Part shown: one piece after another, positions 15,103-18,146 of the stretch | Layout of the letters: every line of letters starts with the position of its first letter | Position numbering within the stretch: position 1 is the stretch's first letter | DNA from: Pyrobaculum aerophilum str. IM2 | GTDB taxonomy: Archaea > Thermoproteota > Thermoprotei > Thermoproteales > Thermoproteaceae | NCBI RefSeq assembly: GCF_000007225.1 | Contig: NC_003364.1 | Coordinates: forward strand, 240,001-272,000 | Length of the DNA stretch: 32,000 nucleotides | Direction: 5' to 3' | Notes under the pieces: generated by a model | The model's input: only the letters and a program-made list of their open reading frames with translations | The model's database searches: none | What the model was told of the DNA's origin: nothing | Position numbers and translations under genes: made by a program

Positions 15103-15459
15103 ATGTTTGATGCATACGACCTGAACGCGTGGGATAATACGAATATCATTGGCGTAGGGGATCGCTACGTAACGGCCTCTTTGGCGTTAGATGGTTCTTC
15201 TACGGCTTTTGATGATTATAACGTGGGGCTCCATTTCTACCTAGACAGAGTTAACCTAGGCGAGTCTCGTTACCTGTGCTTTATATATCTCGCCGGGGAT
15301 ACGCTCGAGGAGCTAGAGTCCAATCTAGTAGAGACAAAAAGATATGCCGAGGCGCTCTGCGCTCCAGTCGGCGGAGTTCTAGTGCCGCCCTTCAGCATTT
15401 ACATATTAGCGGCATTATTAGTACTGATATCTGATTATTATATCAAGCAGAAGTTCTAG
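15103..15459 (+). CDS. short surface-anchored protein, probably the C-terminal remnant of an L-type lectin-like gene
   Basis: FDAYDLNAWDNTNIIGVG resembles the EFDT..N.WDP..HIG block of 16491..17102. The C-terminus APVGGVLVP plus TM helix (FSIYILAALLVLISDYYI) plus KQKF matches the tails of the two downstream genes. Confidence 0.55.
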   Translation: MFDAYDLNAWDNTNIIGVGDRYVTASLALDGSSTAFDDYNVGLHFYLDRVNLGESRYLCFIYLAGDTLEELESNLVETKRYAEALCAPVGGVLVPPFSIYILAALLVLISDYYIKQKF

Positions 15460-15466
15460 CCAATTA

Positions 15467-15474
15467 TTTTAAAA
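15467..15474 (+). promoter_or_regulatory. TATA-box-like element (TTTTAAAA) for 15493..16293
   Basis: Centre lies ~23 nt upstream of ATG 15493. This spacing is typical of leaderless crenarchaeal genes. Confidence 0.5.
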
Positions 15475-15492
15475 CTATACTTTTTTTCTTAC

Positions 15493-16293
15493 ATGGTTCA
15501 TATACCGCAACGTGCCCGACCGGCGCGCCGCATATCCTCTACGCGAGTTAAGCTACTGCTTCTAGGGTTTGCAGTACTTCTTCTGGCGTTGGGCCTGGCC
15601 CCCATTATTCCCTACTACCTGCCTAAGGGAGATTACGAGCAAGCCAATGCCACCGCCAACCCTCCTTTGAAACAACTTAGGATAATATATTTCGACAGCT
15701 TATATGTCGACTTTCCAAATAGAGAGTTGCTAAACCTAGTTAAACTATTGAAGATTGTGCACAACGTATCTGTGTACCTAGGGGAAAACGCCACGGTGGC
15801 CCAGCTAATGGAAATAATACGCAGTGGGAATTTCGACGTGCTTATAATTAGGGCACACTCCGCGCCTATGGAAACCGGCTCTCCTTTTGAAAAAGGCATT
15901 GCTATTTTTGGCGAAAGAGCCGACGAGGAGAAATACTTTATCGAACAGCTGGCTGGCCTCGTGAGACGGGCCCGGCCCCTCTGGGGCGTTGGGGTTTACT
16001 ACGCGCTTACGCCACTGGAATTCGAGGGGCTTAATTTCAGCAACAAAATAGTAATCTTGCTCAGTTGCGGAGGATTTGACGATTACATGCAAGGCGTCAT
16101 TGCAGGTGGCGGCGGAATATACGCCTCTTGGACGGGATTTGTATCTGTAGAGGAGAACGACAAAGTGGCAAAATCCATATTAACAAACCTGCTCAACGGC
16201 AGACACCCCCTATACGGCGTAATAGGAGTTGTGGATAGTCAATACGGCTCTAAATTCCTCGCCGCGGCACCTAGGCGCAACACCGCACAATAA
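15493..16293 (+). CDS. N-terminally membrane-anchored protein with a caspase/legumain-like (clan CD-like) His...Cys dyad pattern; candidate peptidase or transpeptidase (hypothesis)
   Basis: Basic N-terminus plus TM helix (VKLLLLGFAVLLLALGLAPII). Hydrophobic strand then His (DVLIIRAHS, H122, nt 15856-15858). Hydrophobic strand then Cys-Gly-Gly (KIVILLSCGG, C192, nt 16066-16068). TATA-like TTTTAAAA at 15467-15474 lies 23 nt upstream of the ATG. The CDS call is solid; the function is inference. Confidence 0.75.
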   Translation: MVHIPQRARPARRISSTRVKLLLLGFAVLLLALGLAPIIPYYLPKGDYEQANATANPPLKQLRIIYFDSLYVDFPNRELLNLVKLLKIVHNVSVYLGENATVAQLMEIIRSGNFDVLIIRAHSAPMETGSPFEKGIAIFGERADEEKYFIEQLAGLVRRARPLWGVGVYYALTPLEFEGLNFSNKIVILLSCGGFDDYMQGVIAGGGGIYASWTGFVSVEENDKVAKSILTNLLNGRHPLYGVIGVVDSQYGSKFLAAAPRRNTAQ

Positions 16294-16294
16294 G

Positions 16295-16304
16295 TTTTTA
16301 AAAT
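16295..16304 (+). promoter_or_regulatory. TATA-box-like element (TTTTTAAAAT) for the lectin gene
   Basis: Centre lies ~23 nt upstream of ATG 16323. This supports 16323, not the TTG at 16491, as the ancestral start. Confidence 0.5.
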
Positions 16305-16490
16305 AGCCATATTTATCATTTTATGAAAGCCGCTATCTTTGCGCTGTTGTTGGCATAACTTATATTCTCGCAGTGTATTGTTATAACTGATGACTTCAAG
16401 TACGGTAGCGACAATGAAGTTAACAAGTGGATTATTTTAAGGGCCAATAATGATTTATCAAGTGAAGTTGTTTGGACCGGTCAATACGTC

Positions 16491-17102
16491 TTGTTAACCG
16501 CCATTGAGTATGGCCGGGCTGGGGCTCTATACCTCAAACTCAACTTAACGCGGTATTACAAATGGCAAGTGGATTTTATATATTTCATAGGTAATAGCAC
16601 AGATCCCGACCCCGCCGACGGGCTGGCTCTGAACTTCTATAGAGAGCCCATGCTCGGAGGCGCAGGGGGACATATAGGCTACAGCGGAATTCCGGGGTGG
16701 GCCGTTGAATTTGACACCCATTATGTGTATGGCAACCCCTGGGATCCGCCTTATCAACACATAGCCCTTACTGAGATACACGCTGAAAATCACGTTTATT
16801 TCTTCGGCGGGCGGGTGGATTTGCGCAACCGCTGGATGTACGCGCGGGTGGCGTTCACGGCGTTGGAGAGGAATTCAACTCATATATACGGGCGTCTCCA
16901 GGTAACGGTGTGGGACAGAGCTGATAGGCAGAATCTCGCTCCCCTCGGCAATGTGCTTATAAACAGCTCATATACAGGGTGGTTCAAGATCTACGGCCAT
17001 TATCTTGGCTTTTCCGCAGCAACAGGCGGGCAAAGAGACTCACACGCGCTGTGGTGGACGCGCGTAGAGGTCTGCCCAGCCCCGGTAGGAGGCGTTGTAT
17101 AA
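16491..17102 (+). CDS. L-type (legume-like) lectin domain protein; the ORF is the middle of a longer frame (16323..17177) interrupted by two in-frame TAA codons
   Basis: ADGLALNFY...GGAGGHIGYSG...GWAVEFDTHYVYGNPWDPPYQHIAL matches the classic legume-lectin blocks (ADGlaFf, vAVEFDT..N..wDp...HIg). Ends in CPAPVGGVV. A promoter-like TTTTTAAAAT at 16295-16304 precedes ATG 16323. Confidence 0.75.
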   Translation: MLTAIEYGRAGALYLKLNLTRYYKWQVDFIYFIGNSTDPDPADGLALNFYREPMLGGAGGHIGYSGIPGWAVEFDTHYVYGNPWDPPYQHIALTEIHAENHVYFFGGRVDLRNRWMYARVAFTALERNSTHIYGRLQVTVWDRADRQNLAPLGNVLINSSYTGWFKIYGHYLGFSAATGGQRDSHALWWTRVEVCPAPVGGVV

Positions 17103-17225
17103 GATCATACGTGGCTTCTCTTATTAATCGGAGCTACCCTAGTAACCGCGCTCTACCTCCAACGGCACATCCTATAGAGAAAGTTTTATATACATACCTC
17201 TTCAACATTAGATGAAAACGGCAAC

Positions 17226-18146
17226 TTGGTAAATGCATATTACCTTGTCGGTATAAGCTACAGGTTAGTCTCATCTTCTGTTGTAGTTGTTAAAGACAGG
17301 CTGTACTTATTAGGCTACTACGACACCCCTTCCGACATAGCCCTAGACTCTGATTTCAAAGTAGTAGCCGCGAGGACAATAGATAATCCTGATCTCTTTC
17401 CGTGGTTTATTACAACTGACGGCACTCACTTATACATAGGATTGATCAACAGTTCTGACTGGTCTATGGTAATCTTGGCGACAGATCTAGAGCTCAATTC
17501 ACAATGGGCTGTCAAATGGGAGCCACCTTTGGGGTTATATATAATTATCGACGATAGATCACCCATAAGGGACGGCGGAATTTTATACCCCGGCAACGGG
17601 GGCTTTGCAAGTCGGTTTTCCAATGCTATTTATTACAACGGCAAAATATATGTGCCGTATTCTTGGTTTACGGATTTCGGTGCTGTATTGAGTGATTTAC
17701 TTGTGATATTTGACGTCTCTACTAGGCGTGTGGTGAGATATTATAGTATTGTTAACACTGGTGTTATATTCTTGCTCAGCACATCAGCTTTTTCAGGCAG
17801 AGGTGGCGGGTGGATTGCAGCCGTTGGTGTTACCTCAGCGAGTGGCATTGAAAAGCAGTTTGTAGAAGATGTCCCTCCTGTTAAGCCCGTTTCTTTAGTG
17901 CTTTCGCCTTTTGAGCCGGTTGTTTATCCTGTATCCGAAGATTTGAGTCCCAAGTCTATTAGCTTGGCGGACTATCCGTTAAACGCCATTTCTGTAGATC
18001 CGCCGCCTGATGCTCTGCTGTTTTTAATTCCCCTGCCGCCTGCCGTCGGCGGGGTCGTTGACGTTGGGTTACACTTTGTGTTTATTACAATGGGGTTGGC
18101 GCTTCTCGTTGCTTTAGGCGTAAAGAACGCGCGGGCTCGGAAATAA
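17226..18146 (+). CDS. surface-anchored hypothetical protein (beta-rich ectodomain, Pro-rich stalk, C-terminal PAVGGVV + TM + basic tail)
   Basis: ORF track (TTG start, so the start is uncertain; ATG 17213 lies in another frame). C-terminus LPPAVGGVVDVGLHFVFITMGLALLVALGVKNARARK. A T-run follows the stop. Confidence 0.65.
   Translation: MVNAYYLVGISYRLVSSSVVVVKDRLYLLGYYDTPSDIALDSDFKVVAARTIDNPDLFPWFITTDGTHLYIGLINSSDWSMVILATDLELNSQWAVKWEPPLGLYIIIDDRSPIRDGGILYPGNGGFASRFSNAIYYNGKIYVPYSWFTDFGAVLSDLLVIFDVSTRRVVRYYSIVNTGVIFLLSTSAFSGRGGGWIAAVGVTSASGIEKQFVEDVPPVKPVSLVLSPFEPVVYPVSEDLSPKSISLADYPLNAISVDPPPDALLFLIPLPPAVGGVVDVGLHFVFITMGLALLVALGVKNARARK

Follow-up and report, generated by a model that had tools for sequence, protein, structure and literature searches.

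The locus and its shared C-terminal element

We analysed a stretch of 32,000 nucleotides from Pyrobaculum aerophilum str. IM2, a member of the Thermoproteales (contig NC_003364.1, positions 240,001 to 272,000), referred to here as the window; positions without a prefix are counted from its first letter. Three neighbouring reading frames on its forward strand (15103-15459, 16323-17177 and 17226-18146) have a C-terminal element in common, in which the motif [C-x2-3]-P/A-V/I-G-G-V-V/L, placed 30-36 codons ahead of the stop, is followed by about 20 hydrophobic residues and a basic tail. They belong to a cassette of four genes, which consists of the three tail carriers and PAE0463. Exact look-ups identified the product of 118 residues as AAL62805.1, that of 266 residues as PAE0463, the lectin as PAE0465 and the product of 306 residues as PAE0466, all of which are annotated as hypothetical. 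The genes and tails are as follows.

14797-15459, forward strand: gene 1, a pseudogene in IM2; the annotated open reading frame (ORF) of 118 residues at 15103-15459 (AAL62805.1) is its last intact piece
15358-15456, forward strand: tail 1 (gene 1), with C-A-P-V-G-G-V-L (15358-15381), the hydrophobic stretch VPPFSIYILAALLVLISDYYI and the basic end KQKF
15493-16293, forward strand: PAE0463, 266 residues, with an N-terminal signal-anchor helix (residues 21-39) and an alpha/beta ectodomain
16323-17177, forward strand: the lectin gene (PAE0465), L-type lectin-like, with an ATG at 16323, in-frame TAA codons at 16356-16358 and 17100-17102, and a stop at 17175-17177
17073-17174, forward strand: tail 2 (lectin), with C-P-A-P-V-G-G-V-V (17073-17099), a codon polymorphic for TAA/GAA (17100-17102) and then DHTWLLLLIGATLVTALYLQRHIL
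17205-18146, forward strand: gene 3 (PAE0466), annotated as 17226-18146 with 306 residues; a 5'-truncated copy of a secreted beta-propeller-like protein of 434-444 residues
18033-18143, forward strand: tail 3 (gene 3), with L-P-P-A-V-G-G-V-V (18033-18059), then DVGLHFVFITMGLALLVALGV and the basic end KNARARK

When the three C-termini were read again, they were found exactly as the initial annotation of this DNA had given them. The C-terminus of gene 1 in the window is CAPVGGVLVPPFSIYILAALLVLISDYYIKQKF, with the cysteine encoded at 15358, PVGGVL at 15364-15381 and the stop codon at 15457-15459. That of gene 3 is LPPAVGGVVDVGLHFVFITMGLALLVALGVKNARARK, in which PPAVGGVV (18036-18059) is followed by KNARARK (18123-18143) and the stop codon at 18144-18146. 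The lectin frame reaches its final stop after DHTWLLLLIGATLVTALYLQRHIL. A peptide of the tail type is EVCPAPVGGVVEDHTW.

The regular expression [PAVL][VI]GG[VA][VLI], run on the six-frame translation of the window, matched three times, and all three matches are the tails. Composition-preserving block shuffles of the window gave 0.2 matches on average, and a match together with a hydrophobic stretch and a stop was obtained in 0 of 200 shuffles. The pattern is therefore far beyond chance expectation, and a chance origin of the shared tails was rejected on these grounds.

Two uncultured relatives, L007 (ERZ1669402) and L009 (ERZ1669411), carry the cassette in conserved form. Its flanks in both are GT1/GT2 glycosyltransferase genes, and in L009 an epimerase gene was seen as well. 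The most intact copies are those of L009, where gene 1 encodes 336 residues, the PAE0463 orthologue 262, the lectin 252 and gene 3 444. Near-identical contigs are present in several metagenome assemblies and metagenome-assembled genomes.

Conservation of the tail across relatives

Comparison of the three families in the three genomes (P. aerophilum, L007 and L009) gave nine tails. The motif [PAVL]-[VI]-G-G-[VA]-[VL] is kept in all nine, with an invariant G-G pair, and a helix and an end rich in K/R follow it. In seven tails it lies 30-35 codons ahead of the stop; the lectin tails of the window and of L009 are interrupted. In the exported cassette proteins a spacer of 4-5 residues separates the motif from the transmembrane (TM) helix. 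A six-frame scan over 85 kb, which covered four loci from three lineages (the window and L012 for P. aerophilum, L007 and L009), returned ten matches to the regular expression, nine of which are the cassette tails.

The orthologous tails of gene 1 begin with CVGPVGGAV (L007) and CGKPPVGGVV (L009), those of gene 3 with LPPVIGGVV (L007) and LPLVIGGVV (L009). Gene 1 and the lectin also have a conserved cysteine that precedes the motif by 3-5 residues; gene 3 lacks it. The lectins of all three genomes share an identical motif, C-x-A-P-V-G-G-V-V, and the helix behind it has diverged (LLLLIGATLVTALYL versus TALTAILLAIVALAAAL), a pattern to be expected if the motif is recognised but not if the tail is simply a helix. 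In gene 3 conservation is higher in the tail (about 70%) than in the ectodomain (60%). Moreover, the motif is written with different codons in the three genes of the window, and the sharing of the tail must therefore be old.

The order of motif, TM helix and basic tail, which the initial annotation had likened to the architecture of known C-terminal sorting signals, was found in all nine tails and is thus kept in orthologues from the two other genomes. Sec signal peptides are present on the intact L009 versions of gene 1 and gene 3; the L009 lectin has no ATG start. In pairwise BLASTP comparisons of the intact L009 orthologues the sole notable alignment was that of the gene 1 tail with the lectin tail (E 0.009). 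Since only tails align, whole-gene paralogy of the carriers was rejected, and the view that a portable C-terminal module sits on unrelated ectodomains was borne out. The sequences thus show the tail to be a modular element, conserved under purifying selection across the three lineages.

State of the carrier genes

The three frames had been described as neighbouring surface proteins. The tails are real, but all three genes are disabled remnants in IM2. For gene 1, tblastn aligned the L007 orthologue to 14797-15453 across several in-frame stops, and so the ORF of 118 residues, which had been listed with the surface proteins, is the last intact piece of a pseudogene. The intact orthologue (L009:5205-6215) starts with the Sec signal peptide METRRATLAIAGLIIATVFATAQQ. 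No Pfam match was obtained for gene 1.

The lectin matched Pfam PF18483 with an E-value of 1.5e-9, but its 38.5 bits fall short of the gathering score of 78.3. Precomputed database annotation lists PF18483 for it, and the NCBI entry identical to the ORF of 203 residues is named 'lectin-like domain-containing protein' (Pyrobaculum aerophilum). The TAA that had been noted in the lectin frame behind the motif is present in the window; it proved to be a single-base variant, and the part of the frame that encodes the signal peptide contains a second TAA, at 16356-16358 (MKAAIFALLLA*LIFSQC). At position 17100 the window and the JGI assembly L017 have T, and the eight other near-identical assemblies have G (GAA, Glu); this is the sole difference over about 13 kb among these assemblies. 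The T could be a strain allele or a reference error. The upstream TAA is present in every P. aerophilum-type assembly checked at that position. Programmed read-through of the TAA codons was considered and rejected because most assemblies have G at position 17100 and the lectin gene has other disabling lesions.

Gene 3 has lost the first 128 residues in IM2, including the signal peptide; its orthologue P0002 aligns only from residue 129, at 17205. The ORF of 306 residues can thus not be regarded as a complete protein. The intact L009 protein has the signal peptide MGLKWLTIAVLVSAVALAQ. A weak beta-propeller match (PF13570) was found for gene 3.

Lesions are also found outside IM2, and the lectin has been disabled independently in three lineages, namely P. 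aerophilum, L009 and L007. In L009 it has ACG instead of ATG (L009:7033-7100) and a TAG between motif and helix (L009:7849-7851; TGG in L007), and in L007 it is disrupted by frameshifts (L007:4006-4604). A stop between the lectin motif and its helix thus occurs in two of the three lineages. Besides, ATA replaces the ATG start of gene 3 in L007. In L011 (FWWM01006234.1), a strain of 97-99% identity, a 1,170-bp deletion corresponding to 16649-17818 takes away the 3' half of the lectin with its tail and the 5' part of gene 3.

The ratios of nonsynonymous to synonymous substitution rates (dN/dS) between IM2 and L007/L009 were 0.09-0.10 for gene 1, 0.23-0.27 for gene 3 and 0.12-0.14 for PAE0463. 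The decay of the carriers is therefore recent, since these ratios reflect purifying selection over the long term. The cassette system is defunct in IM2. Identity between L007 and L009 is a mosaic, with 94% for gene 3, 86% for gene 1 and 76% for the PAE0463 orthologue, which suggests recombination within the cassette.

Distribution of the tail and the cassette

For gene 3, a single non-identical homologue cluster was found among 5.8 billion proteins, and for the lectin one close homologue was found in a protein database search. A profile of the tail was searched with hmmsearch against 1.84 billion representative proteins and returned only the cassette's own proteins at E<=0.001. When one family was left out in turn, the held-out tails scored between -0.7 and 24 bits, so that this search cannot detect new carrier families. 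The tail-profile search of the index of 5.8 billion proteins was empty even for the query's own proteins and is uninformative. The tail hidden Markov model (HMM) was also run on all ORFs of 173 kb of partly redundant loci; at least 15 bits was reached only by the cassette families, over a background of at most 9 bits. No further instance was found in the extra sequence of L012 and L013.

The initial annotation had suggested a crenarchaeal sorting signal spread over the proteome, an idea that would fail if the motif occurred in the three linked genes only. Every instance that we found lies in one four-gene cassette, which does not bear out the proposal and comes close to that outcome, within searches too weak for new carrier families. 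Apart from P. aerophilum-like genomes, only the two uncultured relatives are known to have this cassette. From the evidence so far we lean towards a tail module that would be private to one lineage-specific cassette.

Comparison with known sorting signals

We compared the tails with the models of NCBIfam release 20 and Pfam at E<=10, using the bacterial PEP-CTERM lectins P0005-P0007 as a control. No curated sorting-signal model (PEP-, PGF-, PEF-, VPXXXP-, GlyGly- or CGP-CTERM) matched any tail of the window, L007 or L009. In the same scan P0005-P0007 matched the PEP-CTERM model TIGR02595 with 17.9-26 bits, above its cut-off of 16, and the silence of the models on the tails is therefore meaningful. 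Membership in the PEP-, PGF-, GlyGly- or CGP-CTERM families was rejected accordingly, and the earlier statement that the tail differs from the named archaeosortase signals held up. Pfam and NCBIfam recognised no exosortase or archaeosortase among the large membrane proteins encoded in the window, in L009 and in L012, a result that concerns the locus only. Our literature search returned nothing relevant on C-terminal sorting signals in Pyrobaculum or Crenarchaeota.

The PEP-CTERM/exosortase system (TIGR02595, PF07589) resembles the cassette in several respects. It also places motif, helix and basic tail at the C-terminus of Sec-exported proteins with unrelated ectodomains, its genes lie in polysaccharide and glycosyltransferase loci, and L-type lectin domains are among its cargo. 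In contrast, the cassette tails have no P-E-P, the HMMs are silent on them, no exosortase homologue was detected in the locus, and they occur in an archaeal host. Outside Pyrobaculum, the closest homologues of the lectin are bacterial proteins that combine a lectin domain with PEP-CTERM. The bacterial tail SPIGS-SIPEPSTWLLLGTG is colinear with the archaeal PAPVGG-VVEDHTWLLLLIG, and an alignment of P0005-P0007 with the archaeal lectins shows P-[IV]-G-x, then VPEP or VVED, then TWLLL, a similarity so short and hydrophobic that it is beyond statistical testing. The archaeal tail may have evolved from a signal of the PEP-CTERM type.

In GlyGly-CTERM (TIGR03501), which is found in Vibrio and Shewanella and is served by rhombosortase, a Gly-Gly pair stands directly before a single TM helix and basic residues on unrelated secreted proteins. 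The cassette tails likewise have Gly-Gly upstream of a single TM helix and basic residues. However, their G-G pair is set in P-x-V-G-G-V-V, often with a cysteine 3-5 residues upstream, the NCBIfam model does not match, and phylum and lipid chemistry differ. CGP-CTERM (TIGR04288) of the Thermococcales is an archaeal signal with a conserved cysteine just before the helix and without a linked archaeosortase. Two of the three cassette families similarly keep a cysteine 3-5 residues before V-G-G, but the invariant element is G-G and not C-G-P, gene 3 has no cysteine, and no model match was obtained.

The cassette proteins also resemble crenarchaeal proteins with a permanent C-terminal TM anchor such as Sulfolobus SlaB, as these are Sec-exported type I proteins with one C-terminal helix and no archaeosortase. 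We know of no short juxtamembrane motif that is shared across unrelated proteins among such permanent anchors. According to a review, SlaB and other crenarchaeal surface proteins are TM-anchored without an archaeosortase, and archaeosortases are confined to a subset of Euryarchaeota and absent from Sulfolobales (PMC6098224). PGF-CTERM with archaeosortase A and its relatives are archaeal tripartite signals on surface glycoproteins, which are cleaved and lipid-anchored (PMC6098224). The cassette motif differs from the PGF-, PEF- and VPXXXP-CTERM motifs, and no archaeosortase is recognisable in the locus.

PAE0463, the conserved non-carrier gene

A TM scan of PAE0463 (UniProt Q8ZZ35) revealed one N-terminal TM helix with positive charges on its N-terminal side, and for this reason the domain of 220 residues should be extracellular and close to the membrane. 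The gene is intact in all assemblies and is located between the carriers in all three genomes. Its orthologues have 262-266 residues and are 71-76% identical. Invariant residues are His122 (DVLIIRAHSAP) and Cys192 (KIVILLSCGGFDD), each of which follows a hydrophobic strand, in an arrangement that recalls Cys/His peptidases and transpeptidases by analogy. PAE0463 is a candidate partner or processing factor of the tails.

Relatives of PAE0463 are scarce. A tblastn search of plasmids and phages gave no match, no relative was found in 185,579 species genomes (in which the region of the window itself is seemingly masked), and a scan of JGI metagenomes returned one copy of 97% identity, from strain L011.

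Possible functions of the tail

From its sequence, the tail is probably an uncatalogued tripartite anchor or sorting element with putative processing. It may well be an anchoring or sorting module that is private to the cassette and recognised by a dedicated factor, which is the reading we tentatively prefer. Judged from sequence, the intact carriers have a Sec signal peptide, a stop-transfer helix and a cytoplasmic basic end and are type I proteins, which helix and basic tail would hold in the membrane. The G-G motif is thereby placed at the outer face of the membrane, level with the ectodomain of PAE0463. The motif would then be the recognition site and possibly a site of cleavage or transfer at the small G-G residues. 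PAE0463 is the candidate for the dedicated factor, as it is the sole cassette gene that is conserved, always intact and not a carrier. The cassette is also situated among GT1/GT2 genes, as PEP-CTERM/exosortase systems are, and the bacterial homologues of its lectin have PEP-CTERM tails colinear with the archaeal one.

Several points weigh against a module with a dedicated factor. Only three carrier families are known, all of them linked, and a conserved juxtamembrane motif can be structural instead of a recognition site. The invariance of His122 and Cys192 rests on four close orthologues and carries little weight. PAE0463 had no Pfam or NCBIfam match at E<=10 and no PDB sequence or profile match, and no similarity to any peptidase or other family was found. 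Its single-sequence AF2 models are of low confidence, with predicted local distance difference test (pLDDT) values of 44.8 and 40.3, and when these models were compared with the PDB by Foldseek, no TM-score exceeded 0.26, a level without meaning. Furthermore, PAE0463 stayed intact although the carriers decayed in IM2 and, in part, in L007 and L009, which argues against a strict dependence of enzyme and substrate. A more specific version, in which PAE0463 (Cys192/His122) cleaves P-x-V-G-G-V-V at Gly-Gly and thereby releases its substrates or transfers them to a lipid or glycan, would constitute a crenarchaeal system apart from sortases, exosortases and rhombosortases; we consider it unlikely. 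In such a system the substrates would be the three co-encoded proteins at the outer face, and the target glycan would presumably be the product of the surrounding glycosyltransferase island.

It is also quite possible that the tails are plain, permanent type I anchors, whose 3' module was exchanged among neighbours and whose motif serves, without any cleavage, as a structural hinge, as a helix cap or as a contact through which the cassette proteins join in one membrane complex. The linkage of all known instances in one cassette fits this explanation, as do the absence of a recognisable sortase-type enzyme from the locus and the precedent of SlaB-like surface proteins, which are anchored without an archaeosortase (PMC6098224). 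The higher conservation of the gene 3 tail relative to its ectodomain would likewise be accounted for by a helix with specific contacts. In the lectin, however, it is the motif that is identical and the helix that is not conserved. Moreover, the differing codon usage of the motif indicates that the sharing is not only old but has been maintained, and three unrelated domains share a fixed motif of small residues whose distance from the C-terminus is constant, which is the hallmark of recognised signals.

A sorting signal used throughout the proteomes of Thermoproteales, and processed by an unlinked intramembrane enzyme of rhomboid, archaeosortase or CPBP type, seems rather improbable to us. Its attraction is the tripartite layout with Gly-Gly before the helix, as in GlyGly-CTERM; besides, an intact PAE0463 beside dead neighbours makes sense if enzyme and substrates lie elsewhere, and the leave-one-family-out scores imply that the profile search could not have shown absence. 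Yet the 1.84 billion representative proteins yielded nothing beyond the cassette at the threshold used, and neither the 173 kb of loci nor the extra sequence of L012 and L013 held another instance. NCBIfam release 20 contains no model for it, no description was found in the literature, and archaeosortases have been reported only from Euryarchaeota (PMC6098224).

The bacterial affinity of the lectin could be explained if the gene had arrived by horizontal transfer together with a PEP-CTERM tail, whose PEP motif degenerated for want of an exosortase in the new host and whose relic was kept only as an anchor and copied to the two neighbours. The colinear tails of the bacterial lectin and PEP-CTERM proteins, the only lectin homologues outside Pyrobaculum, suggest as much, and the cassette region has a G+C content of 41-49%, next to 35-41% in the glycosyltransferase cluster upstream. 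The similarity of these tails, however, cannot be tested statistically, and PEP-CTERM models match no archaeal tail. The element common to the three cassette proteins is V-G-G-V and not the PEP position, and the motif is conserved instead of decaying. A relic of this kind is very improbable in our view.

To our knowledge, covalent C-terminal sorting in archaea has been established only for the archaeosortase systems of Euryarchaeota. Against this background the cassette is a compact and testable crenarchaeal candidate, comprising, within an island of glycan synthesis, three cargo proteins with one Gly-Gly motif and one membrane-anchored ectoprotein. Should the motif prove purely structural, the cassette would still provide a tidy case of a 3' anchor module that is common to unrelated genes. 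It is also a record of heavy gene decay in this island of P. aerophilum.

The surrounding island

The G+C content is 35-41% in the glycosyltransferase cluster (3000-9000) and 50-60% elsewhere in the window, which is consistent with a horizontally acquired surface-glycan island. The cluster encodes a polytopic protein at 6298-9042 (forward strand), which has a counterpart at L009:11529-14360. These proteins of 914-943 residues combine 7-10 N-terminal helices with a large extracytoplasmic part and a C-terminal helix. Neither Pfam nor NCBIfam gave a match for them, and they may be similar to glycan polymerases or transferases.

At 21579-24002 on the forward strand, 3.4 kb downstream of the cassette, lies a gene for a protein of 807 residues with an N-terminal helix. 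It has weak matches to zinc metalloproteases of the M6/M11-like type (PF05548, E 6.8e-5; TIGR03296, E 1.2e-5). No counterpart was present among the genes called in L007 and L009, where no search aimed at it was made.

Decay is also seen beyond the cassette, in tracts at 10766-12239 (reverse strand), 18622-18960 (reverse strand) and 20079-21634 (forward strand). Fragments of a paralogue of the membrane protein of 914 residues form inverted repeats with 79% identity to 7008-7350, and short ORFs duplicate a motif of the protein of 807 residues. A GT1 glycosyltransferase is cut to 112 residues in the window, compared with 306 in L007 and L009. Finally, a coiled-coil gene with RIDETNKRID heptads is present as an inverted pair (24825-25292, reverse strand; 28638-29144, forward strand), whose arms share 96% identity over 310 nt. 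Between the two lies a segment of about 3.4 kb with a PaREP1-family gene at 27650-28204 on the reverse strand (PF05942, E 6.5e-30).

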